Assembly: GCA_020631995.1 (NCBI GenBank)
Contig: JACKGJ010000002.1
Span: forward strand, 90,773 to 154,772
Direction of reading: 5' to 3'
From: Candidatus Nomurabacteria bacterium
Lineage (GTDB): Bacteria; Patescibacteriota; Minisyncoccia; Phycocordibacterales; UBA918
DNA: 64,000 nt
The number at the start of each line of letters is the position of its first letter. The stretch's first letter is position 1. Shown here one piece after another: positions 1 through 58,234 of this stretch. Under the pieces are notes generated by a model. The model made no database searches, was not told the DNA's origin, and worked only from the letters and a program-made list of their open reading frames with translations. The position numbers and the translations under genes were made by a program.

Positions 1-726
1 GTCTTAGTGTTTCCTGCGAGCTCACGAAGTTTCTGGTTGTTATAGGTATCAACGTCGGCGTTGTGGGTATAGAGTTTAGTTGGTTCTATATTTTCATACG
101 AAATACTGGTTTGTTCAGAGAGTAGTGTGTAGTGGTCTTCTTCGACTTGATTAAGACGAATAGATTTCAAAAGTCCCAAGAAGAGATTATCTTCCTGGCG
201 GTGTTGCTCAGAGAGGTAGCAAGTGAGTAGTTGCGCATCACTCCAAGCTCTTGACTGGAAGCTATAGAGCATTGAGTCGCCTCGGCGTGTCACTGGTGGC
301 AACTGAAAAAAGTCACCCACGAAGACCACCTGTATTCCACCAAATGGTTCTTCGCGTTGGCGCACAGTCTTTAAAACCAGATTCACCATATCAAGAATCT
401 TGCCGTCGAGCATTGAAACTTCATCAATAACTAAGACATTGGCCTTTTTGGCGCGACGAGAAACTTTTTCATTAGTCGAAATTTTGTCTAGGTCGTACGG
501 AGTCAGAGTGTCGCGTATACCAATACCACTCCAGGAATGGATAGTCATACCACCTATATGTGTGGCAGCGATACCGGTTGAGGCGGTGACAGCTACCGAC
601 AAGCCCGCTGCTTCGAGCCAAGCAATGTACTGGTTGATTACATAAGTCTTCCCTGCTCCGGGTTCACCAGTTAAAAAAACATTAGCGCCGGTCTTTAAAA
701 TATCGAGAGCTGCATTTTGGGTCATT
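1..726 (-). CDS. PIF1/RecD-like P-loop DNA helicase, N-terminal part (gene runs off the left edge)
   Basis: Own reverse translation from ATG at 724-726: MTQNAALDILKTGANVFLTGEPGAGKTYVINQ (Walker A), then ANVLVIDEVSMLDGK (Walker B-like) and FVGDFFQLPPV. This is the motif order of PIF1/RecD-type helicases. It is absent from the ORF track because no stop lies in the window. Confidence 0.7.
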
Positions 727-775
727 GGGTATAAGTTTACCATTTCAGAGTGACTTACGGATATAATGAAACAAA

Positions 776-2524
776 ATGAGTTCCAGTGTACATACACATT
801 CAAAGGTGCAAGAAAAAACCACGCGAGAGCCACTCGGGCATTTAGTGTTGTCTCACGCTCTTAAGGATGCTGGTTTTAAGGGTGAGGTATTGAGTGATAA
901 AAAGACCTTAGAGCTATACGCTACAGACGAAAGTGTTTTCAGTATTAATCCTCAGTTGGTACTTCGCCCGCTTGATAGACGTGATGTAGAGGTGGCTGTG
1001 AATGTGATAGCAGAGCAGACCAAAAGCTTCCCTGGTCTTTCCTTAACGCCCCGTGCCGCTGGTACTGGGCTAGGTGGCGGTTCGCTCACTGATTCAGTAG
1101 TGATAGATATCAAGGAACACCTAAATCAGATAGATAGAATTTCCAAAGTAGGAAGCAAGGTCACTTTTACCGCTGGTCCTGGAGCGATGTGGCGTGATGT
1201 GGAGAAGGAGCTTAAAAAATACGACCGTTATCTTCCCTGCTATCCGGCTTCTAAACAAATCTGTACAGTCGGTGGTGCTGTTGCAAATAATGCCGCTGGT
1301 CCAGACTCACTGCGCTTTGGGCATGTGGCTGATTGGGTAGAGTCGCTTGAAGTCGTTTTGAAGGATGGAAAAACCTACGACGTTAAACCGCTTTCATATA
1401 AGGAATTTCGCAAACTCATAAAGCAAAAGAATGCTCTTGGTGAGATCGCTAAACAAGTCTTTGAGCTAGTTGAATCAAATGAAGAAACCATTAAGAGGGC
1501 CAAGCCGAAAACTTCTAAGAATAGTGCAGGTTATGCGCTTTGGAATGTGGTGACTCCGTCAGTGGCGGAATTTAAGAAAGGTAAAGGTACTTTTGATCTC
1601 ACCCGGATATTCTCTGGCGGACAAGGCACTATCGGTATCATTACCTCACTCACTATGCGGACTGAGCCAATTCACCACGACACTTCCCTAATAGCCGTAC
1701 CAGTTTTCAATCTATCCAATGCCAGTCGCGTAGTTATAGAGGCACTTAAGTACAACCCTATAAACGTAGAAGTCTTCGATGCTCTTACTTACGACGCAGC
1801 GATGCAAAACCCACAGTTCTTCCGTGACCGACTACCAAGCCTCAGCTACTACCGTGTACTGCTCTCTATGTACACTACCTATCACGTTAGATGGCGACGC
1901 AAACTTCCAGAGTTTGTTTTGCTGATTACTCTTGATAACGCTTCTTTAAAGGAATTAAAGAAGCCGATGACTGAAGTGATTGAGGCACTACGAGTGCGCG
2001 GTGGTCCTTCGGCCCGATTGATCCAAAACCCAAATGAACGAGAAATGTTTTGGCAGGTTCGTGACGGTAGTTACCTACTTTCAAAACTACTTGACCCTAA
2101 CAAGCGTCCAGCTGCATTCCTTGAGGATATGACAGTTCCACCTGAGCATATGGCCAAGTTCTTTTCTGATATCAAGTACCTACTCAAGAAATATAATGTA
2201 ACGGCGGCAGTACACGGACATGGTGGTAACGCCCATTTTCACTTCTATCCCCTACTCGATTTCACTAACCGCACTACTCCAGCTTTAATAGTGAAAATGT
2301 CGGAAGAATTCTTTAATGTGGCAGTGAAGTATGGTGGAAACATATGTGGTGAACATAACGACGGAATTATTCGCACACCACATTTATCTAAGATGTTTTC
2401 TAAGAACGCCATCAAGCTCTTTGAAGAAACTGAACACATCTTTGATCCTGATGACATCTTTAACCCTGGTAAAAAGGTCCATCCTCGTTTTGATATAAAA
2501 AGTTCGATTAGGAAGGTGAATTGA
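776..2524 (+). CDS. FAD-binding oxidoreductase (GlcD / D-lactate dehydrogenase-like)
   Basis: 582-aa ORF with an FAD-binding region (PRAAGTGLGGGS) and a C-terminal FAD-linked oxidase signature (HGHGGNAHFHFYP, GEHNDG). Confidence 0.75.
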   Translation: MSSSVHTHSKVQEKTTREPLGHLVLSHALKDAGFKGEVLSDKKTLELYATDESVFSINPQLVLRPLDRRDVEVAVNVIAEQTKSFPGLSLTPRAAGTGLGGGSLTDSVVIDIKEHLNQIDRISKVGSKVTFTAGPGAMWRDVEKELKKYDRYLPCYPASKQICTVGGAVANNAAGPDSLRFGHVADWVESLEVVLKDGKTYDVKPLSYKEFRKLIKQKNALGEIAKQVFELVESNEETIKRAKPKTSKNSAGYALWNVVTPSVAEFKKGKGTFDLTRIFSGGQGTIGIITSLTMRTEPIHHDTSLIAVPVFNLSNASRVVIEALKYNPINVEVFDALTYDAAMQNPQFFRDRLPSLSYYRVLLSMYTTYHVRWRRKLPEFVLLITLDNASLKELKKPMTEVIEALRVRGGPSARLIQNPNEREMFWQVRDGSYLLSKLLDPNKRPAAFLEDMTVPPEHMAKFFSDIKYLLKKYNVTAAVHGHGGNAHFHFYPLLDFTNRTTPALIVKMSEEFFNVAVKYGGNICGEHNDGIIRTPHLSKMFSKNAIKLFEETEHIFDPDDIFNPGKKVHPRFDIKSSIRKVN

Positions 2525-2599
2525 GGGTCTGAACTTTTGACATCTCCCTAAACTATAGTATAATTTTGGAAGATTATTTACGAAACAGGGAGTGTTCTC

Positions 2600-2962
2600 A
2601 TGAATCGATCCGTACTTACGCTGGTGCTTAGCATCAGTTTTTCGCCCGCTGTCTTGGCAGAGGACTTCCACTGCCCGGTTGCATCTTGTTCGGGGATACG
2701 CCAAAACGGGAAAGGACTAGACATTGCTGTTGCAAAAGCCACTTTTGTCCACGCTGTCGAATCTGGTGAAGTCATCTTCGCTGATCGCCTCAAGCAGCAT
2801 GGTATGACCATCATCATCCGCCACAACAACGGAGGATATTCCTCCTATGGTCAGCTGGAGACTTTCCTTGTAGGGACAGGCGTTCGTGTAGGTCAAGGAA
2901 AGAAAATTGCAGTAAAATTGCCTGGCCCACCACTCTACTTCGAGTTGACTCAGCTGGAGTAA
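2600..2962 (+). CDS. Secreted LytM/M23-domain protein, probably non-catalytic
   Basis: Signal-like N-terminus MNRSVLTLVLSISFSPAVLA. M23 fold pattern IIIRHNNGGYSSYGQL...GQGKKIA...LYFEL. The expected HxxxD and HxH zinc ligands read GLD and PLYFE. Confidence 0.6.
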   Translation: MNRSVLTLVLSISFSPAVLAEDFHCPVASCSGIRQNGKGLDIAVAKATFVHAVESGEVIFADRLKQHGMTIIIRHNNGGYSSYGQLETFLVGTGVRVGQGKKIAVKLPGPPLYFELTQLE

Positions 2963-3016
2963 TGATTCTCGCCACCATTGTGAGGCTACAATCCCTCAGT
3001 TGGTGAATACAAAAGT

Positions 3017-3050
3017 GCCCTCTTGATGCTTATCTTGAGGGCCTTTTCTT
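3017..3050 (+). terminator. Rho-independent terminator after the LytM gene
   Basis: Stem GCCCTC (3017-3022) / GAGGGC (3037-3042) followed by CTTTTCTT. Confidence 0.55.
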
Positions 3051-3058
3051 ATAATACC

Positions 3059-3078
3059 AGTTAGTCAGGATTGGAATC
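3059..3078 (+). repeat. Cassette-junction repeat R1 (right-hand 20 nt only)
   Basis: AGTTAGTCAGGATTGGAATC matches 18/20 of the right part of R2. The left GTGACCCT part is absent. Confidence 0.7.
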
Positions 3079-3164
3079 TTTAAATTAAGAAAAAATTGAG
3101 ATGTATTCCCAAAACGATAAATTTATGACATAAATACCCTGGATTAATATACGGAGGTTAACCA

Positions 3165-3803
3165 ATGCTAACAGCTTTTGCCTTCAAATGGAGGTTGACG
3201 GGCTTGATTGCAAAACTACTCTGGAGGAACATAGAATGCGGATACCTCGTTCGTGTGGCGAATAGACGAGGTGAACATATTCAATGTTTGGTTAATTGTG
3301 TGGGATACGAGTTTGTTTCAAGAGAGTCACGAATCACTAGGGTTGGCTATCACACACAATCCAGACCGGGGTACGCTGTAAATGTAAACGGAGAACGAAC
3401 TTCAGATATATGCTGGGAGGCTCCTGTTTGTATTACAGTCTATTGCGAGGATAAACCCCTATTGGGTTTTGCAGTAGAATTCCGTGGACCTGTTCTTTGT
3501 ATACGACAGTTACAAGGTGTTCCAGGCGTAAATATTCCCGAAGCTTTGCGCAAGTGGCCAGCTTTGTTTGTGTATGGAGCAAAGAACTTTCTCTACAATA
3601 CTGAAGAAATTAGTTCAATGCGCCTATATACAGCTGATCAGCGTCCATCTTACGAATATCCTGCAACTGACTTCTCAGAAACTGAATTGCAAGATTACCG
3701 ACGCAACCTACGCAGACGATATGATGGAACCGCTCGTCAACAAGGGTTTAAAAGAAAAGGTCATAAGTTCTGGTGGTGGGATTTGTCTCTAGTCCCGAAG
3801 TAA
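3165..3803 (+). CDS. Hypothetical protein (cassette 1)
   Basis: 212-aa ORF with ACGGAGG SD-like sequence 7 nt upstream of the ATG and its own terminator at 3824-3861. No family confidently recognised. Confidence 0.55.
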   Translation: MLTAFAFKWRLTGLIAKLLWRNIECGYLVRVANRRGEHIQCLVNCVGYEFVSRESRITRVGYHTQSRPGYAVNVNGERTSDICWEAPVCITVYCEDKPLLGFAVEFRGPVLCIRQLQGVPGVNIPEALRKWPALFVYGAKNFLYNTEEISSMRLYTADQRPSYEYPATDFSETELQDYRRNLRRRYDGTARQQGFKRKGHKFWWWDLSLVPK

Positions 3804-3823
3804 CCGGCGCAATCGCCACTCAT

Positions 3824-3861
3824 AAAATCGCCACCCGCGATTCTGGGTGGCGATTTTCATT
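3824..3861 (+). terminator. Rho-independent terminator of cassette 1
   Basis: AAAATCGCCACCC / GGGTGGCGATTTT perfect stem with an 8-nt loop and a T-run. Confidence 0.7.
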
Positions 3862-3880
3862 TTCCAAGTTGGACTAATCT

Positions 3881-3907
3881 GTGACCCTAGTTAGTCGGGA
3901 TTGGAAC
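3881..3907 (+). repeat. Cassette-junction repeat R2
   Basis: GTGACCCTAGTTAGTCGGGATTGGAAC. It lies between two convergent terminators. Confidence 0.8.
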
Positions 3908-3938
3908 TTTATATACAAACAAATCTTAGTTTTGAGAT

Positions 3939-3988
3939 AAAAAAGCAGCCCACAAAACGTGTCTATGGGACTTACGCTTTGTGGGCTG
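3939..3988 (-). terminator. Rho-independent terminator of cassette 2
   Basis: On the minus strand, CAGCCCACAAA / TTTGTGGGCTG forms an 11-bp stem followed by TTTTTT. A homologous copy lies at 42573-42620. Confidence 0.65.
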
Positions 3989-3990
3989 TA

Positions 3991-4344
3991 TCAGCCGATT
4001 GGCTTGTGTTCGACAAACCCGCTGTGTTCGAACGGACGAATCCAGATGCCGAAATTGATGTGGTTGAGGTCACAAGAATTGCCGAAATCGGCCTTCAGGG
4101 CTTGCTTGTGCACATCGACTTCCCCGACAGTTCTCGATCCTGTGTCGATGACAAATTCGAGTCGCAGGATATTGTCTGCAAGATCCGCATCTTCGGCTGC
4201 AATCGGTTTCGGAATCACAGCAATATCTTCCATGCTGTAGCCGAGCTGTTGCGAGACCAGTTCGCGAAACTTCGTCTTGTTCTCCTTCAGGATGGCACGA
4301 ACTTCATTGTCGTCTGCCCGAAAGAGGGGGTAAATGTGTGGCAT
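3991..4344 (-). CDS. Hypothetical protein (cassette 2), 117 aa from the internal ATG
   Basis: I prefer the ATG at 4342-4344 because AGGAAGGAG sits just upstream. The protein starts MPHIYPLFRADDNEV. An N-terminal Met-Pro is reminiscent of the tautomerase superfamily, but this is only a guess. A terminator lies on the same strand. Confidence 0.5.
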   Translation of the reverse strand: MPHIYPLFRADDNEVRAILKENKTKFRELVSQQLGYSMEDIAVIPKPIAAEDADLADNILRLEFVIDTGSRTVGEVDVHKQALKADFGNSCDLNHINFGIWIRPFEHSGFVEHKPIG

Positions 4345-4411
4345 GTCTGACTCCTTCCTATAATAAGAACGTATGTTGAAATAGTACACGTTAAATACAC
4401 TTTGTCAAGTT

Positions 4412-4438
4412 GTGACCCTCGTTAGTAACGATTGGAAC
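4412..4438 (+). repeat. Cassette-junction repeat R3
   Basis: GTGACCCTCGTTAGTAACGATTGGAAC, 23/27 identical to R2. On the minus strand it directly abuts TTGACA (-35) of cassette 2. Confidence 0.75.
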
Positions 4439-4465
4439 CGTATTTATCAAAATTTGATTAAAGTA

Positions 4466-4500
4466 AAAGAAAAACTCGCCCGGGTCGAAACCCGAGCGAG
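4466..4500 (-). terminator. Rho-independent terminator of cassette 3
   Basis: CTCGCCCGGGT / ACCCGAGCGAG stem (10/11 paired), CGAA loop, T-run on the minus strand. Confidence 0.65.
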
Positions 4501-4516
4501 GCGCTGAACACGAGGA

Positions 4517-4813
4517 TCAGCTGATCTTGAAGTTGCCGAAGCGCTTGCCGTTACGCATCCAGTACCGAGCCTCGAAGGAAATCGGCTTGGCAGGATCAGT
4601 CATGATCTCGCCATCGATAGTCCAATTGCGACGACCGGAATCGTGGTTGCGAATGCCCCAGATGCGGACAGGGGTCTCGTTGTGCTGGTTCTCCAGCCGG
4701 AAGAAAACTTCCGAGCCTTCAAACACCGCAAACATCAGAGACGTCCGATCGGGACCGTTGACGATGGCAGCACCATCGTAGCGTTCAAGCACTTCCTTGT
4801 CAGAGGTGAACAT
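4517..4813 (-). CDS. Hypothetical protein (cassette 3), 98 aa from the internal ATG
   Basis: ATG at 4811-4813 preceded by GAAAGGAAG. The protein starts MFTSDKEVLERYDG. Terminator on the same strand. The longer track ORF (to 4918) would run into the promoter region. Confidence 0.5.
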   Translation of the reverse strand: MFTSDKEVLERYDGAAIVNGPDRTSLMFAVFEGSEVFFRLENQHNETPVRIWGIRNHDSGRRNWTIDGEIMTDPAKPISFEARYWMRNGKRFGNFKIS

Positions 4814-4921
4814 TACGTTCTTCCTTTCTTCAAGATTGGGAGTGGCATTACGCCTGTCTCCACATCCGCAGGTGCGAGATGCAAATGGAAAATACCACAA
4901 TAATAGTGATTGTGTCAACTC

Positions 4922-4948
4922 GTGACCTTAGTTAGTCGGGATTGGAAC
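4922..4948 (+). repeat. Cassette-junction repeat R4
   Basis: GTGACCTTAGTTAGTCGGGATTGGAAC, 26/27 identical to R2. On the minus strand it abuts TTGACA of cassette 3. Confidence 0.8.
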
Positions 4949-5063
4949 CAGCTAATTAACCAAGTTAGGTTGGCAACCCTAGATTTAAGACAGTAGATAG
5001 ACATATTTCCATAGGTATTGTAGTGTTGCGATACCCTCAGAAATCAGTGAAAGGAGTATTTCA

Positions 5064-5636
5064 ATGGGTACTGTACATCTGACAAACGGCCACCACGGCC
5101 TGTATATCAGTAACGACAAGATCGACCTCAAGCAACGGGTTCTTCTCACTCAGGCAATGCTCGAGCGTCCCATCTTCATCCGCGGCGAACGTTGGGGAAG
5201 CCCGATGCAAGATGTCATTCGCGGTGCTCTTCAGGGCTTGATGGATTTGAAAGGCTTCAATGCCGCCGTCTCCTATCTCACTGTTGAACATGACGGCGTT
5301 CTTCACATCTCGACACCAAAGCGTGTGTGGTGCGAGATCTCTCTGGAGACTCCATGGGAAATCGCTCTTGGTTTCTCCCACGACTCGAGGTATCGCAATC
5401 ACCCCTTCACCACCCTACTCCAATGGCTGGAAGAGGAGTATCCGGCTGGCGAACTGCCCTACAATGAGTTCAAGCAATTCTGCTTCGGTTGGGTGTCTCC
5501 TGAGAAGTGGCGTGAGTTCTTTGAGCACAGGATCCAGAAGAAGGTCGAGACTATGCGATCCAAGGCCAATACCCTGCGCCATGAGGCACAAGGAATGACT
5601 GAACGGGCAAACTCTATCGAAGCCATACTCGGCTAA
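5064..5636 (+). CDS. Hypothetical protein (cassette 4)
   Basis: 190-aa ORF with GAAAGGAG SD 8 nt upstream of the ATG, visibly G+C-rich. No family recognised. Confidence 0.55.
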   Translation: MGTVHLTNGHHGLYISNDKIDLKQRVLLTQAMLERPIFIRGERWGSPMQDVIRGALQGLMDLKGFNAAVSYLTVEHDGVLHISTPKRVWCEISLETPWEIALGFSHDSRYRNHPFTTLLQWLEEEYPAGELPYNEFKQFCFGWVSPEKWREFFEHRIQKKVETMRSKANTLRHEAQGMTERANSIEAILG

Positions 5637-5738
5637 CGACACGGTCCACTGACAAAAGGAAAGGCACATCAGCCTCCGTGTCGGTGGGCCTTTTCTTTTT
5701 ACTAGCTTTTTCTATAAATAAGAGTAGATTAGCGTCCA

Positions 5739-6137
5739 ATGTCTACCGGAATGAAAGTGGTGGGAGTTATTGGGACTGTGATTGTCTTGTCCTTAGGTGT
5801 CTCTGCGGTTGAACCTACCACTTCAACTACTCCCCCACTAAACACTGCTACTGGGGCAGTTAAGATTGAGTCCAAGTCGGAAACCAAACAAGAAGCAAAA
5901 GCTGACGAGCCAGAACCTGCAATTAAGCCGGTAGAAAAACCTAAAACTACCCCAGCGACACCTAAACCAACCTCAAGTTGTCACCCAAGTTACTCAGGCT
6001 GTCTCAAAATGAATGCTGGTGATTATGACTGTGCCGGAGGCTCAGGAAACGGTCCAAATTATACTGGCACGGTCCAAGTCTACGGCTCCGACCCATTTGA
6101 CTTAGATAGAGATAACGATGGTTGGGGGTGTGAGTAG
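5739..6137 (+). CDS. Secreted Excalibur calcium-binding domain protein
   Basis: N-terminal TM/signal segment, Pro/Thr-rich linker, and C-terminal CHPSYSGCL...DYDCAGGSGNGPNY...DPFDLDRDNDGWGCE, the Excalibur DxDxDGxxCE signature. Confidence 0.7.
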   Translation: MSTGMKVVGVIGTVIVLSLGVSAVEPTTSTTPPLNTATGAVKIESKSETKQEAKADEPEPAIKPVEKPKTTPATPKPTSSCHPSYSGCLKMNAGDYDCAGGSGNGPNYTGTVQVYGSDPFDLDRDNDGWGCE

Positions 6138-7277
6138 TTAGAACCAACTTTTAAAGAAAGAAATTATTTTCTTAAAGAAACTTTCTTTCACAACACCTAA
6201 ATCTTCTTGATTGGTGTCAGTGTCACTGCTTGTTGATACTTCAGTTGTTTCCACTTCGTCAATCATTTCTTGTTCTCCCCTAGGCACTTCTTCCTTCAAT
6301 GTTTCATCAGTTTGTACTTCTTGCTCAACAGTAGCCTGTTTAGGGGTTGTTTGCGGTGGAGTGTAAGTTTGTGTTGACTGGAAGTAGTAGGAATAATCTT
6401 CTTCCTCCTCAGGTTCAGGAAACGAATCATCGTAAGTTTTTTCCTTATGCATGATTGAGCAGGTTTGGCTGTGGTCTTGAAGGACCACCGTATCAAATGT
6501 ATCAACGCTATAGTCTGTTCCTAAATTCACAACTAAATTTTTACCTCGATATCTCTCAATTGATGTGCTCAGACAGCCAACACCTACACGCACGATGTAT
6601 TTTGAGTAATCATAGTCACTTTTAATCAAAAGTTCCTTGTCATTTTCGGGATTTATATCAAGAAGTTTGAAGTAGACATTATTTTGTTTTTCAACACACT
6701 GATAATCGTCGTCAAACGTATACCCACTATCACACTCACATTTATTGCTTAAGCTATCGTAAGAAGATCTGTAGCCATGATCACTACGACAAACCTGGTT
6801 AGCATTAGTACATTGTTGATCTCCAAACATATTGGTATCAAAAATGTAACCATAACTACACTCACAAGTATCTGAAAGCGAGTCGTATCGTGACATGATT
6901 CCGTACTCGTCATGACAAGCAGAATCACCTGAAACACATTGTGTCTGTCCAGAATAATTTTTGCCAAAGACATATCCGTAACCACATTCACATCCTCCTG
7001 AGTAGTTTGCTCTTGCGTTAAATCCGTATTGATCTTGACAAGCTTGTGTCTCAGAGATGCAGTAAGAATTTCCAAGTACCCCCTCGCCCATCACGTAGCC
7101 TGACATACATTTACAGTACCCACCACTTTCATAGGCCATAATCCCATAATCACTGCAGGAAGAGCCATACTGGGCTTGCGCATCGTGAGTTAGTAATAAA
7201 AAGCCACCAAAAACAATGGTGGTTCCAAAGAGTGCAAAAATGATGGCTGGCTGAGCCAATTTTAGTAAGTTTTTCAT
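6138..7277 (-). CDS. Membrane-anchored Cys-rich repeat protein
   Basis: Start taken at MKNLLKLAQPAIIFALFG (ATG 7275-7277). Four tandem modules of the type C..(Y/H)G......S....C.C..GY.F, for example SCSDYGIMAYESGGYCKCMSGYVMG and SACHDEYGIMSRYDSLSDTCECSYGYIFD. Acidic C-terminal tail. Confidence 0.65.
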   Translation of the reverse strand: MKNLLKLAQPAIIFALFGTTIVFGGFLLLTHDAQAQYGSSCSDYGIMAYESGGYCKCMSGYVMGEGVLGNSYCISETQACQDQYGFNARANYSGGCECGYGYVFGKNYSGQTQCVSGDSACHDEYGIMSRYDSLSDTCECSYGYIFDTNMFGDQQCTNANQVCRSDHGYRSSYDSLSNKCECDSGYTFDDDYQCVEKQNNVYFKLLDINPENDKELLIKSDYDYSKYIVRVGVGCLSTSIERYRGKNLVVNLGTDYSVDTFDTVVLQDHSQTCSIMHKEKTYDDSFPEPEEEEDYSYYFQSTQTYTPPQTTPKQATVEQEVQTDETLKEEVPRGEQEMIDEVETTEVSTSSDTDTNQEDLGVVKESFFKKIISFFKSWF

Positions 7278-7624
7278 TGAGATTAAAATAGCACTAAAAG
7301 TGTAAAAGTCTAGGTTGTAGAACAGATGAAACTTGTCTGGTTGCATGGCTGGACCTTTGACTCCGTATAAGTGGCGGTTAAGAAAACCGGTACTAGAGAT
7401 TTTGTAAATAACCGTTCTTGTTGGTTAAAGGTAAATTTTTTGTGTATTAGCATTATTTTCACAAAGAACAACCCACCCCTGTGGATAACTCAGAATGGTG
7501 CAGTTTTCCCTTCCAGAAAATACGGCTTAGATAAGGGCTTTTTGCGTAAAAGTTTGATTTTAATGTTTCGAGCTTAAATTTATACCATTTTTAAGCCGTG
7601 TTTAAATATAAGTAGATAGCATTT

Positions 7625-7716
7625 TGTGCAGGCGTCGTGATTTTCACGGCAAGTTATTGCCGTAGAGCTGATCACTGTTGGGGCAAATGCCCCAACGAAA
7701 TCGTGACGCCTGCACA
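7625..7716 (+). ncRNA. Candidate structured RNA, three-way junction, unclassified
   Basis: 19-bp closing stem 7625-7643 / 7698-7716, including two G.U pairs that work only on the plus strand. Hairpins ACGGCAA/TTGCCGT (7646-7663) and GTTGGGGC/GCCCCAAC (7677-7696). Confidence 0.3.
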
Positions 7717-7810
7717 GTACACTATCTGCCCTCTTTACAGATTAACAGGAAAAGGTCGACTGTCATGTCTGTTTTCCACAGGGCTTTAAAAGTATCATTT
7801 TGTTCTTAGT

Positions 7811-7978
7811 ATGACAAATAAACGTTTTCGCGGACTTCGCCCACTAAAACCATTGGATAGAATGCAAAACATGCGGACAATGAGACCAATGGGAGCAAAG
7901 AAGTGGGTTAAGGCTCACTGGAGATGGGACTATGACCGACGGCAGTGGGAATGGGTAACGGGACATTGGAGTAGATAA
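7811..7978 (+). CDS. Small basic Trp-rich protein (55 aa), YXWGXW-repeat-like
   Basis: Own translation: MTNKRFRGLRPLKPLDRMQNMRTMRPMGAKKWVKAHWRWDYDRRQWEWVTGHWSR. It is below the track length cut-off. A GCCGA/TCGGC hairpin plus TATTTTCTT follows near 8041-8067. Confidence 0.4.
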   Translation: MTNKRFRGLRPLKPLDRMQNMRTMRPMGAKKWVKAHWRWDYDRRQWEWVTGHWSR

Positions 7979-8103
7979 TATCGTTGTGGTCACAAGTTAC
8001 TAAGTATAATCGTGCATTTCATGCAGATTATACTAAGTACTTGCCGACCCCGCCTCGGCTATTTTCTTCACTAGGAAGGGTTCAGAAAATTATGCCTGCG
8101 GCC

Positions 8104-8195
8104 TCACATCAGGCCCGAAACTGAAGCAGTTCAGTTTCTACACAAGAAAACACTACCTCACGGAGAAGTAGTGTTTTCTTGTGTGCCTGATGTGA
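8104..8195 (-). other. Compact three-way-junction structure in the tRNA-Glu 3' trailer
   Basis: Stems 8104-8114/8185-8195 (11 bp), 8117-8125/8130-8138 (9 bp) and 8140-8156/8168-8184 (17 bp). Only 3 unpaired junction nucleotides. Confidence 0.3.
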
Positions 8196-8264
8196 CCCTA
8201 CAGGGAATCGAACCCTGATTTAAGCCTTGAGAAGGCTCCGTCCTAACCGTTAGACGATAGGGCC
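8193..8264 (-). tRNA. tRNA-Glu (anticodon CUC)
   Basis: GGCCCTATCGTCTAACGGTTAGGACGGAGCCTTCTCAAGGCTTAAATCAGGGTTCGATTCCCTGTAGGGTCA folds as a 72-nt cloverleaf with anticodon loop TTCTCAA. CCA is not encoded. Confidence 0.9.
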
Positions 8265-8414
8265 AGTGGCGGTATTTATACCAAATATTTTGCGTTTAGT
8301 GAAGTGATGTGAGGGGGGTGGCTCTATATAGCTTTTGTCATAAATTCCCTGCCTACTCGTCTTATATAGTAGTGGCGATGGTTATCGCAGGTTATTAACT
8401 TAAATAAAATTCTT

Positions 8415-8603
8415 ATGTTATCTTGGGCTCTCACTTTCTTTGTCCTAGCTCTAATCGCTGGTGTGCTAGGTTTTACCGGCATCGCTTCAGCTTCGGCTGG
8501 AATCGCGAAGATTCTCTTTGTTGTCTTTATTATTCTCTTTGTCCTGTCTTTCTTTTTTAAGGCAGCGGGTAAAGCGGACAATATGCTCGACAAGAATATG
8601 TAG
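8415..8603 (+). CDS. DUF1328/YtjA-type small membrane protein
   Basis: [45 protein letters not shown] matches the UPF0391 pattern. Confidence 0.75.
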
Positions 8604-17148: not shown

Positions 17149-17619
17149 CTATGCAACTTTTACCACTTTGTAGTTTTGTTTACCTGACGGTGTGTCAAAG
17201 TTGAATGCATCACCGGTAGCTTTCCCCATCAATGCCTCTCCAAGTGGAGAAAGGTATGAAAGTTTGTGGTCGTGGATGTTGGCTTCTTCGGTTCCCACAA
17301 TAGTGTATGTACGTTCCTCTTTGCCACCATCCTTCTTAATGGTAACTGTGCTACCTAGGCCCACAATGTCACCTTTTTTGTCGTGAGCAACTATCTTGGC
17401 TTCTTTAATGACTTGTTCTAGGTGACCAATACGCTCTTCGATAGTAGCCTGCATATCGCGTGCTTCTTGATACTCAGCGTTTTCTGAGAGGTCTCCAAGA
17501 CTACGAGCGTATTCTAGAGCCTCGGCCACTTCACGACGACGGACTGTCTTCAAGTGTTCTAACTCCTTTTTTAATTCTTCGAACTTCTGAGGGGTCAGAT
17601 ATGCTTGTGTGTCATTCAT
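17149..17619 (-). CDS. greA: Transcription elongation factor GreA
   Basis: LTPQKFEELKKELEHLK...SENAEYQEARD coiled-coil plus a C-terminal FKBP-like domain. An ATG at 17617-17619 or a GTG at 17640 are both possible starts. Confidence 0.9.
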   Translation of the reverse strand: MNDTQAYLTPQKFEELKKELEHLKTVRRREVAEALEYARSLGDLSENAEYQEARDMQATIEERIGHLEQVIKEAKIVAHDKKGDIVGLGSTVTIKKDGGKEERTYTIVGTEEANIHDHKLSYLSPLGEALMGKATGDAFNFDTPSGKQNYKVVKVA

Positions 17620-22168: not shown

Positions 22169-22540
22169 GTGATTGATATTGATACGTACCATGGAATCGG
22201 TTATTCTATTAGCAACCGGGCGTCACTCGTGTCTGAACTCAGCAAAAAACTCGCTGAGCAGGACGAGCAGGACCTCAGACTCAAGGAACTTATGCTTAAA
22301 AAAGCTCCTGAGGAGCTACGTGAATGGCTAAATGAAGACGGCATAATGCGCGCCCTTTTCATTTGGGGTCGCTGCGACACTAAGATTAGCTACGATGACG
22401 AATATGGGTTTTCCAATTTGGACGACGTCAAAGCCAAACTTGGAGTGCTTCGCAAAGCTTGGAGGGATATTGTCTACATTAAATTGGACAAGAGTCCTGA
22501 ACCGCATCGTGTCAAAGTCTGGTTCTCAGCCGTATTGTAA
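22169..22540 (+). CDS. Hypothetical protein
   Basis: GTG start with GGAGGG 7 nt upstream, 123 aa. Divergent from the preceding gene. Confidence 0.45.
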   Translation: MIDIDTYHGIGYSISNRASLVSELSKKLAEQDEQDLRLKELMLKKAPEELREWLNEDGIMRALFIWGRCDTKISYDDEYGFSNLDDVKAKLGVLRKAWRDIVYIKLDKSPEPHRVKVWFSAVL

Positions 22541-22614
22541 AATCGCTCAACGGAAGTCTCTCGACTTTGTTGGGCGATTTCTGTCTTAGGCTCGATAAAA
22601 GACCCAATTAATTT

Positions 22615-42312: not shown

Positions 42313-42375
42313 TATATGACAAAAGAAAAGACCCTTTGATGTTATCTCGAGGTCTTTTAGTTTGTGCTATTTAAT

Positions 42376-42501
42376 CTACTTCTTTCCCTTTTTACCTGCC
42401 TTCTTGGCAAGCATTTCTCTTTTTGCTTCTAAGCGCTTCTTTGATTTATATGGACGCTTAGAAGTGTTCTTCTTTGGACTCAATGCAATTATTCGTGTCA
42501 T
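42376..42501 (-). CDS. Possible 41-aa highly basic peptide
   Basis: Own translation: MTRIIALSPKKNTSKRPYKSKKRLEAKREMLAKKAGKKGKK. Below the track cut-off, no SD seen. Confidence 0.3.
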   Translation of the reverse strand: MTRIIALSPKKNTSKRPYKSKKRLEAKREMLAKKAGKKGKK

Positions 42502-42625
42502 GTCGAACAGTATATATTAATTTTGGTTGGTAGTTAAGGTGTTTTCTGGGAGAATGTTGAAACTTTTTATATAAAAGCAGCCCACAAACGTAGTCGTGGG
42601 ACTTACGCTTATGGGCAGTCTGTAA

Positions 42626-43078
42626 TCATCGAGGGAAACCAGCATCCTTCTGCCAGGTCCAACCTGCTGTTGCTAGTCCAGTCAGAAGTCCTCCGTTGTA
42701 TAAGTCCATGCGAATCCATTTCGCAGCAGCGATGCTGTATAGAATGGCCAGACCATGAGCGATTTCCTTCTCAGGTAGGTCTGGAGAAAGAGCGATACTG
42801 TCTTGCTTCCATGCCTCCATCTCGATCAGGGTAGGAATTCGTCGCTCGGCAATAAGCTTTTGCAGATGGATTCGGGCATCTTCCACTGAAGCCTCAATTT
42901 CTTCTTCATCCATGTCGAGTATCTCTGCTGTGCTTGTGTAGCTGTGTTGTCTTACAACTACCAAAACAAGAGGATGAAGTTCAGAGGGCATCAAATGAAA
43001 CATCGCCGCTATTTCTTCAGGCAAAACATGAGCCTTACCTGGATTCAGAATTGCTGTCGAAAAAACGTCACTGAGCAT
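42626..43078 (-). CDS. Hypothetical protein with sigma-70 region-4-like HTH (G+C-rich one-gene module)
   Basis: AGGAGG SD before ATG 43076-43078. LMPSELHPLVLVVVRQHSYTSTAEILDMDEEEIEASVEDARIHLQKLI resembles sigma70_r4_2. The terminator is homologous to that of cassette 2. Confidence 0.5.
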   Translation of the reverse strand: MLSDVFSTAILNPGKAHVLPEEIAAMFHLMPSELHPLVLVVVRQHSYTSTAEILDMDEEEIEASVEDARIHLQKLIAERRIPTLIEMEAWKQDSIALSPDLPEKEIAHGLAILYSIAAAKWIRMDLYNGGLLTGLATAGWTWQKDAGFPR

Positions 43079-43314
43079 TATGACCTCCTAAGTCTTGTTT
43101 CGTCTGTTAGTGATACTACAATAAAAACTCAAAATGTCTAGCTCCGCGGGAAGGAATTTCTTTCATTACATGAACGGTACAGGTTGTCACGATTTTTCAT
43201 ACTTCAAAATCGCAGGCAACCTTTTCGAATCCTGACGGAAGTGACGCAGGTCACTTCCTCCCGCGTAGCATTAAAATCAAAGACCACACAAAGTGTGGCC
43301 TAAGATTTTATATG

Positions 43315-43607
43315 CTCCGCGGGCAGGATTCGAACCTGCGACCAATCGATTACACGAATCCCAATGTTTCCAAAGGGCGTGGACTATATCATCACCCACT
43401 AGGGGTGGAAGGCGCTTCCCCGGATTTCTCCGAGTACTCCCGTTAGGGATAGTCTCTGAACCTTTCCTTTGATTACTCTCCGGACTTGGCTGCTGATTGC
43501 CCACGGCTTTACGTTTGGGTTCCCAGCAGTTCACCTTCTTTTCGATCTGGATTACTCCAGAAAGCTGCCTTTGACAGTCGACCGCTCTACCGCTGAGCTA
43601 CCGCGGA
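43315..43607 (-). tRNA. tRNA-Asn (anticodon GUU) interrupted by a group I intron
   Basis: Exon 1 43574-43607 is TCCGCGGTAGCTCAGCGGTAGAGCGGTCGACTGT. Exon 2 43315-43352 is TAATCGATTGGTCGCAGGTTCGAATCCTGCCCGCGGAG. Joined, they give a 72-nt cloverleaf with loop CTGTTAA, a U1-A72 pair and G73, like bacterial tRNA-Asn. Confidence 0.85.
43353..43573 (-). ncRNA. Group I intron, 221 nt, no ORF
   Basis: The 5' exon ends in U and the intron ends in G. GCAG near the intron 5' end can pair with exon CUGU (P1 with a U.G pair). Conserved core strings GCAGCCAAGUCC and GUUCAGAGACUA with the complementary AUAGUC (P7), as in the Tetrahymena and Azoarcus introns. Confidence 0.85.
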
Positions 43608-43700
43608 ATATCCTTAATCTGCGGTATTAGATTAAGTACGCACATTCTACAGAAAAACTGAATTGTTTCAACTTTACCAATAGTGTATATTACGCTCTCT

Positions 43701-53532: not shown

Positions 53533-53579
53533 TACAAAAACAGCCCGCCGAAACGGACTGTGTTGGGTCTGGTCGAAGC

Positions 53580-58157: not shown

Positions 58158-58234
58158 GCAACAAATCATTCTCCTAGCAGTGAAAAGACGTCCGCAAGCC
58201 AAAGTTTGCGGGCGTCTTTTATAATAACCTCTCA

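Follow-up and report, generated by a model that had tools for sequence, protein, structure and literature searches.

Two short hairpins that lie 38 kb apart in the window, i.e. the whole 64-kb stretch of Candidatus Nomurabacteria DNA analysed here, belong to a real, conserved and portable 3′ block which recurs behind unrelated genes of Patescibacteria and whose terminator half is probably ordinary in function, while unusual in conservation and distribution. The best-supported description of the system as a whole is that of tRNA-anchored integrative islands combined with an integron-like cassette logic. With moderate confidence, we favour a reading in which the hairpin is a Rho-independent terminator that forms the conserved 3′ end of single-gene mobile cassettes of Patescibacteria, and in which the adjoining repeat is an attachment-type site.

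Patescibacteria possess tiny, streamlined genomes, and little is understood of how accessory genes enter and leave them. What the present evidence suggests is tRNA-anchored arrays in which single-gene cassettes, plugged in as self-expressed units, have a 3′ block common across classes; such arrays in Patescibacteria are not described in the literature searched. A paper on 'hypervariation' in Gracilibacterium is about a repeat protein and unrelated to the arrays. The arrays provide a concrete candidate system for how gene cassettes get built, a covariance model of the hairpin (model R1) together with the repeats gives a searchable signature for the flexible gene pool of Patescibacteria, and the compact promoter, terminator and att parts could be genetic tools for a group that has recently been made transformable.

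The shared hairpin and its conservation

The two modules, 47-49 nt in length and each located 3′ of a small gene, are accompanied by the following features:

3908-3940, minus strand: spacer from repeat R2 to module A, conserved with loci L011 and L012
3941-3989, minus strand: module A, terminator-type hairpin (by fold) 3′ of the cassette-2 ORF; 68 bits with model R1
3991-4344, minus strand: cassette-2 ORF, 117 aa (H6788_02080), with five homologous clusters and a homologue in L011 from a DNA scan
4381-4408, minus strand: promoter-like site of cassette 2, TTGACA-16-TACTAT, abutting repeat R3 (consensus scan)
42564-42572, minus strand: AT-rich spacer and U-tract from module B to the repeat (direct reading)
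42573-42619, minus strand: module B, terminator-type hairpin (by fold) 3′ of ORF150; 75.1 bits with model R1, the match spanning 42570-42623
42626-43078, minus strand: ORF150, orphan cargo gene (H6788_02295)
43113-43140, minus strand: promoter-like site of the ORF150 cassette, TAGACA-16-TAGTAT (consensus scan), directly after the tRNA-like repeat, as in other cassettes

A first-pass annotation of the window had described the two modules as related, with common runs of 16 and 14 nt and about 85% identity by eye, and the comparison bears this out. Positions 3941-3956 equal 42573-42588 (16 nt), positions 3966-3979 equal 42597-42610 (14 nt), and the best local alignment is identical in 43 of 50 columns (86%), with a score of 57; 100 shuffles of the 64-kb window that preserve dinucleotides average 24.3 (sd 2.3) and reach 31 at most. 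The terminator-type folds proposed for both are recovered as predicted folds on the minus strand, in each case a long hairpin with a bulge and, directly behind it, a U-run of the form CUUUU(U/G/A)U, with −27.8 kcal/mol (z −7.0) for module A and −26.1 kcal/mol (z −5.75) for module B. The hairpin starts 2 nt (A, ORF 3991-4344) or 7 nt (B, ORF 42626-43078) past the stop codon and both copies are flagged by a consensus terminator scan; a stable GC-containing hairpin and a U-run, 3′ of the stop and on the coding strand, i.e. the sequence features of an intrinsic terminator, are present in both, which would give the hairpin terminator activity. The proteins encoded in front of the modules are unrelated to each other, as the annotation had also held. 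Neither module nor repeats match any Rfam 15 covariance model, whether at gathering score or with E relaxed to 5.

The homology had further been proposed to continue outwards, with GGGAGAATGTTGAAAC and TTTTTATATA resembling GGGATTGGAAC and TTTATATA. This resemblance is real and joins two repeat families with a common tRNA T-loop-like end. The TAGTTA at 42531-42536, on the other hand, which had been taken as an echo of the repeat, lies outside the element, in a chromosomal flank conserved in a related species that carries different inserted DNA, and it shares positions with the −35 of the promoter-like site belonging to the next gene. An uncalled 42-codon ORF at 42383-42511 (minus strand) encodes a very basic peptide, MTRIIALSPKKNTSKRPYKSKKRLEAKREMLAKKAGKKGKK; conserved in L023 and absent in L026, it has its own promoter-like site at 42509-42537 that contains the TAGTTA.

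Model R1, made from ten module copies, has 14 strong matches (64-82 bits) in loci that total 135 kb, two in the window and 12 in other Patescibacteria, all genomes compared being MAGs; the copies of L026, L027, L028 and L029 were reached via protein homology and not via the DNA pattern. Across these 14 copies, 97.3% of the cells of the 13-pair stem are paired. Seven of the 13 pairs vary, on one side only and always as C/U opposite G or A/G opposite U, and such wobble keeps the pairing on the gene-sense strand, while pairing of the opposite strand would break. That G·U wobble is tolerated solely on the gene-sense strand fits a hairpin at the level of the transcript. The 3′ arm is invariant and loop and bulge nearly so, including the four copies found by protein homology, and the 14 copies contain no compensatory double changes. 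Within the cassette-2 family the hairpin is 83-98% identical as compared to 64-79% for the coding sequence, and it is conserved above the spacer as well; between the two ORF150 loci, whose proteins are 86% identical, a single position of the 45-nt stem-loop is substituted. Judged from these alignments, the primary-sequence conservation of loop and 3′ arm appears to exceed what a plain terminator needs, and this over-conservation, together with the invariant 3′ arm and the lack of compensatory double changes, counts against the favoured reading.

As the hairpin is more conserved than the coding sequence, a second, sequence-specific job besides termination is conceivable, which we nevertheless hold to be rather unlikely. 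The hairpin might be a P-arm binding site in the attachment region of the cassette for an integrase or accessory protein, a nick site or single-strand origin for transfer or replication of the excised cassette, or a signal that acts on the stability or processing of the RNA. Loop, bulge and 3′ arm that are nearly invariant in all 14 copies and better conserved than the adjoining coding sequence and spacer would be accounted for by such a job, as would the fixed orientation, the three discrete spacings to the repeat (~15, 25 and 35-38 nt) and a rolling-circle Rep gene near one copy; yet most cassettes of the same arrays dispense with the hairpin and carry unrelated terminators instead, no partner protein was identified, wobble restricted to the transcribed strand suits recognition of RNA over duplex DNA, and recent spread plus gene conversion could equally give high conservation.

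In the Pacebacteria MAG locus L007, a rolling-circle initiator (PF23343) and a GIY-YIG nuclease (861-1907 and 3130-3408) are located upstream of the module cassette; such genes are absent near the other arrays.

tRNA-like repeats and single-gene cassettes

In 12 of the 14 copies the hairpin is followed after 14-38 nt by a repeat; of the two others, one (L008) is a doubtful case, and for the other (L014) the contig stops too early. The repeat is 27-32 nt long, begins with GTTC(C/T/G)AA in gene sense and covers, in a stretched form, the tRNA from the T-loop to the acceptor end. Family 1, GTTCCAATCCCGACTAAC-TAGGGTCAC, constitutes repeats R1-R4 of the window array and aligns best to the tRNA-Glu 3′ end save for a 5-nt insertion, whereas family 2, GTTC(C/T)AACATC.TCCCA..CGG..AGCAA, aligns best to the tRNA-Asn 3′ end plus trailer save for three 2-nt insertions. 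The repeats of the window and their anchors are:

3056-3077, plus strand: R1, distal-most family-1 repeat, T-loop-side half only; identity with GCA_020632025.1 ends at 3055
3881-3907, plus strand: R2, family-1 repeat GTGACCCTAGTTAGTCGGGATTGGAAC, 27/27 identical to the L011 repeats
4412-4438, plus strand: R3, family-1 repeat (repeat alignment)
4922-4948, plus strand: R4, family-1 repeat (repeat alignment)
8192-8264, minus strand: tRNA-Glu(CUC), anchor of island A; the family-1 repeat starts with the sequence of the tRNA 3′ end, GTGACCCTA (plus strand)
42545-42563, minus strand: family-2 half-repeat, T-loop side, in gene sense GTTTCAACATTCTCCCAGA, matching the L006, L010, L026 and L021 repeats
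43141-43160, minus strand: displaced partial tRNA-Asn 3′ end GAAATTCCTTCCCGCGGAGC at the proximal edge of the ORF150 cassette, compared with the tRNA 3′ end GTTCGAATCCTGCCCGCGGAGC
43313-43612, minus strand: tRNA-Asn(GUU) with a group I intron, anchor of island B (Rfam Intron_gpI at 43360-43590, 82.8 bits)

Family 1 and tRNA-Glu have GTGACCCTA and a T-arm-like part in common, a TTGGAAC at both loci is the reverse complement of the T-loop, and the family-1 repeat recurs with 27/27 identity in a Saccharibacteria MAG (L011). At locus B, the half-repeat marks the distal edge of the ORF150 cassette, where the cassette homology to L021 ends, and positions 42564-42572 together with 42573 make up the 14 nt separating GGGCTG from the GTTTC of the repeat; the same hairpin-repeat spacing of ~15 nt is found in L006, L010, L021 and L026. 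The partial tRNA-Asn copy at 43141-43160 is conserved in L023. Default ARAGORN misses the tRNA at 43313-43612 and, with introns allowed, calls it 'Thr(tgt)', a known miscall for intron-bearing tRNA-Asn in Patescibacteria (PMC13011429); its L026 homologue is an intron-less tRNA-Asn(gtt). As in the window, the arrays of L011, L005 and L012 lie downstream of tRNA-Glu (for the most part directly, in L005 at a distance of 2.4 kb), L012 with an exact 16-nt copy of the tRNA-Glu end, and the L026 array directly follows tRNA-Asn. Like tRNA-targeted islands, the arrays thus lie 3′ of a tRNA gene and have direct copies of its 3′ end as their bounds. The distal-most repeats of both islands (3056-3077 and 42545-42563) consist of the T-loop-side half only, which simple integration into a tRNA end does not predict and which weighs against the favoured reading.

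A tRNA-like element of ~150 nt (43141-43292, plus strand; −51.9 kcal/mol, z −6.5), which separates the ORF150 cassette from the tRNA-Asn 3′ end, comprises an inverted tRNA 3′-end copy with a hairpin inserted between T-stem and acceptor strand. Its L023 homologue (8344-8490) keeps both internal hairpins with wholly different, i.e. compensatory, sequences, and an analogous inverted tRNA-Glu-like piece adjoins tRNA-Glu in the sister strain (L012, ~17345-17400). The element may be a small RNA or a part of the attachment machinery.

Four repeats are present in the window array, five in L006, six in L010 and two each in L011 (near tRNA-Glu) and L026, with a spacing of 362-1099 nt in L006 and L010. 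Single ORFs lie between the repeats, and every one has its own terminator and a promoter-like site that abuts the repeat. Every cassette junction carries a repeat, while the hairpin occurs in one of four cassettes of the window array, in one cassette each of L006 and L010 and in one of three in L026, most cassettes carrying other terminators. A CRISPR repeat, a dif site or an IS91/IS200 end was considered for the repeat and rejected in view of the gene-sized spacers and of the absence of dyad symmetry and of a transposase. Among viral contigs, the family-1 repeat gave one chance match inside a phage ORF and the family-2 repeat 51 matches, of which most fall in one and the same conserved coding stretch of phages and none shows cassette features.

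According to the favoured reading, a cassette would be composed, in gene sense, of a sigma-70-type promoter, one ORF, the hairpin, a U-/AT-rich spacer of 14-38 nt and the repeat of 27-32 nt. The hairpin would halt transcription at the cassette edge, which would, as we propose, turn each cassette into an insulated expression unit. The repeat would serve as an attachment-type site for the gain, loss and reshuffling of cassettes, which would pile up downstream of the tRNA gene whose 3′ end the repeat copies; the block of hairpin, spacer and repeat would travel with the cassette between lineages, and recombination among cassettes could also place it behind unrelated ORFs.

The cargo is heterogeneous. 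In each of the five further loci read at DNA level the module lies 3′ of the gene, a cassette-2 homologue in L011, L027, L028 and L029 and an ORF150 homologue in L021, and it is co-inherited with the gene even among members of the cassette-2 family whose proteins are as little as 52-60% identical; the cassette-2 protein is at least 90% identical in a Kaiserbacteria MAG and a Nomurabacteria MAG. ORF150 has two homologues among 5.8 billion proteins and no Pfam family above cut-off, and a faint sigma-70 region-4-like HTH (PF22233, E 0.025) suggests that it may be a small DNA-binding regulator. PADLOC defence-system models gave no meaningful match to the cassette proteins.

Within the variable island, a gene at 6138-7346 (minus strand) encodes a 402-aa cysteine-rich repetitive protein without a family match, adjoining the gene of an Excalibur-domain protein (5739-6137). 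A non-coding stretch of the same island, 7622-7722, which has no Rfam match at gathering score, folds into a three-way junction (−57.5 kcal/mol, z −8.9).

Cassette variability and comparison with integrons and tRNA islands

Whether module-bearing genes are variably present had been put forward as a check, and they are, between near-identical strains at island A and between related species at the ORF150 site. Over 1-3055 the window does not differ from GCA_020632025.1, a sister assembly, or from an independent assembly (L013), and from 8192, the 3′ end of tRNA-Glu, onward GCA_020632025.1 is 99.7% identical, but the ~5.1 kb between 3055 and 8192 contain different cassettes in GCA_020632025.1. 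This interval, between an M23-peptidase gene and tRNA-Glu, measures 5136 nt in the window (3056-8191) and 5167 nt in the sister strain (L012, 12281-17447), where only cassette 1 and the stretch of R2 plus spacer recur, at other positions. The island of the sister strain includes, among others, a Hydrolase_2 gene and an MBL-fold gene matching the anti-Pycsar Apyc1 family.

At locus B, ORF150 is kept in five near-identical strains. In L023 (core neighbour gene 82% identical) the flank is conserved to window position 42543; past this point the small gene is another one, placed behind a family-2-like repeat and a terminator that also differs. In L026, a 78% relative, three other cassettes occupy the region from tRNA-Asn to the core gene, and one of these has a 177-aa gene with the module. 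L021, with the 86% identical ORF150 homologue, retains hairpin, spacer and repeat but has a different gene after them. The breakpoints, 3055/3056 and 8192 against the sister strain and 42544±1 at locus B, are placed as att-type breakpoints would be. Hairpin, spacer and family-1 repeat are nearly the same in L005, behind a receiver-domain gene, and in L027/L028, behind cassette-2 family genes, a likeness from which it follows that the ORF was exchanged in front of a constant 3′ block. L012 contains a hybrid, in which repeat and spacer continue into the first 14 nt of the module and from there into another hairpin top and an MBL-fold gene.

A recombinase was detected by Pfam neither among all called genes of the 64-kb window nor among the neighbours within 8-20 kb of any array, and large unannotated proteins of L023 and L007 do not match Pfam recombinases at E ≤ 1. 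An integrase in or beside the element, as expected of tRNA islands, is present in none of the examined loci, and neither circular nor empty-site junctions were observed. That no recombinase is found near the arrays counts against the favoured reading, in which site-specific recombination at the repeat would be carried out by a recombinase encoded elsewhere.

Integrons resemble the arrays in that mostly single-gene units each end in a recombination-type repeat, the cargo is unrelated, often of unknown function and variable between close strains, and the cassettes lack a recombinase of their own. In integrons, though, attC is an imperfect palindrome of 57-141 nt with R″/R′ cores, whereas the repeat described here has 27-32 nt, is non-palindromic and resembles a tRNA 3′ end; integrons have intI, attI and Pc adjacent, whereas here none of these is present and the arrays start at tRNA genes. 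Unlike integron cassettes, the units carry their own promoter and terminator, contain genes in both orientations and are anchored to a tRNA. No integron integrase, attI or attC consensus was found by Pfam on the window genes or by reading.

A tRNA-targeted island grows as each newer insertion displaces the older ones outward, partial tRNA repeats being left behind (PMC4383910; bioRxiv 10.1101/2020.12.28.424599). Such islands, including the tycheposons of Prochlorococcus, share with the arrays the position downstream of a tRNA, the bounding by copies of the tRNA 3′ end, hypervariability and occurrence in streamlined genomes. In contrast to these islands, the units are of 0.4-1.1 kb with one gene and without integrase or replication module, and the repeats are conserved 'stretched' tRNA versions with insertions of 2-5 nt, common to classes with differing tRNAs. 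To our knowledge, a conserved terminator block beside the repeat has no described counterpart among tRNA-targeted islands. The pdif modules of Acinetobacter are likewise small gene modules with sites of ~28 nt and with a recombinase encoded elsewhere as the presumed mover; in those sites, however, XerC/XerD half-sites enclose a 6-nt spacer, and the modules are flanked by them in alternating inverted orientation, while the repeats here are all direct, without dyad symmetry and tRNA-end-like, and by reading the two 11-nt inverted arms of a Xer/dif site match at only 4 of 11 positions.

A bolder option, to which we give limited credence, is an undescribed integron-like capture system, in which cassettes with pseudo-tRNA repeats are moved between classes by an unlinked recombinase and the hairpin is functional in the machinery. 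Self-expressed cassettes would stack downstream of tRNA-Glu and tRNA-Asn, as the favoured reading also has it, and the hairpin could be a recognition or arm site, or a handle that joins new ORFs to a ready-made 3′ end. A functional hairpin would explain why it starts 0-9 nt after unrelated stop codons, why it is conserved above the genes and why it is used with both repeat families.

The module had also been likened to an attC-type cassette end. The portable 3′ block stands, as differing cassette content and unrelated preceding genes indicate, but the attC-like boundary is the repeat and not the hairpin, since most array cassettes carry other terminators and one of the four in the window bears the hairpin. 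That the hairpin is itself the recombination site, folded as a single strand like an integron attC and with the repeat being secondary, is therefore very unlikely. It does sit at the cassette 3′ edge in constant orientation, its long stem is imperfect and bulged, and the L012 hybrid suggests a breakpoint inside it; with one hairpin-bearing cassette per array and a repeat at every junction, however, it is the repeat that ends every cassette, as the recombination element of an integron does, and the homology between genomes also has its edges at the repeat. By reading, the stem base CAGCCCAC/GTGGGCTG lacks the R″/R′ cores (RYYYAAC/GTTRRRY), no GTTRRRY/RYYYAAC pair is present at hairpin or repeat ends, and an IntI-like gene is not found nearby. 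Hairpin conservation, the distal half-repeats and the L012 hybrid keep a recombination or recognition role alive, at low probability.

Distribution of the hairpin family

A scan for the exact pattern in one genome per species (185,579 species) yielded seven matches, six of which are true full copies, all in Patescibacteria MAGs, and one a chance match in coding sequence (L009). The copies belong to Paceibacteria/Paceibacterota, Kaiserbacteria and Saccharibacteria, with 1-2 copies per species genome. JGI metagenome contigs added one further true copy; another match of the metagenome scan (L015) lies inside a coding sequence and was discarded as chance. No viral contig matched the module pattern, and plasmid and phage collections contained no match to hairpin, spacer and repeat combined. 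At least eight unrelated ORFs in at least ten other Patescibacteria contigs precede the module, among them the cassette-2 family, ORF150, a REC (receiver) domain protein, one resembling ClpP and others of 136, 98 and 177 aa; two gene families were used to find some of the copies, the preceding ORFs being otherwise unrelated. In every copy read, the hairpin begins 0-9 nt past the stop codon. The earlier claim of a portable 3′ non-coding block that follows unrelated genes in many genomes is hereby supported.

Conserved terminator hairpins after many unrelated genes are familiar from Correia elements and inverted DNA uptake sequences of Neisseria and from REP elements, which number hundreds to thousands per genome and also follow core genes; the module, in contrast, occurs 1-2 times per genome and, wherever its flank is readable, at a cassette edge (12 of 14 copies). 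That the module, with or without the repeat, represents a small non-autonomous transposable element of REP, MITE or Correia type with an accidental terminator seems to us highly improbable. A short structured non-coding unit of patchy distribution behind unrelated genes in many genomes would suit it, but terminal inverted repeats and target duplications are not seen by reading, nor are the uniform length and the many copies typical of MITE and REP elements. The spacing to the repeat is variable and involves two different repeat families, the start at 0-9 nt past a stop codon holds throughout, the module is co-inherited with the cassette-2 family and ORF150, and the copy number is very low, with two copies per 64 kb and one or two per species genome by exact pattern.

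A chance likeness of modules A and B, or a generic terminator family of the genome, which the first-pass annotation had named as its own refutation and for which GC-rich stems and U-runs of terminators in general and weak R1 matches at 22535-22588, 58183-58223 and 53533-53565 could be cited, is refuted, as the only strong matches of model R1 within the 64-kb window are modules A and B (68-75 bits), the weak ones reach 21-28 bits (the next-best 26-28) and are by reading ordinary unrelated terminator hairpins, the window's core genes all do without the module, and the alignment score lies far above all 100 shuffles.

A second terminator hairpin family, AAAAGACCC.TTGATG.TATC..., is located at 42330-42358 in the window, at 7684-7715 and 8012-8045 in L023 and at ~6860-6895 in L026, and recurs after different genes beside family-2-like repeats, which makes the module one of several shared cassette terminators. 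In L006, two cassettes with different ORFs (6037-6203 and 7815-7980) are 90-92% identical in promoter and leader, and cassette 5′ ends can hence be shared modules as well.
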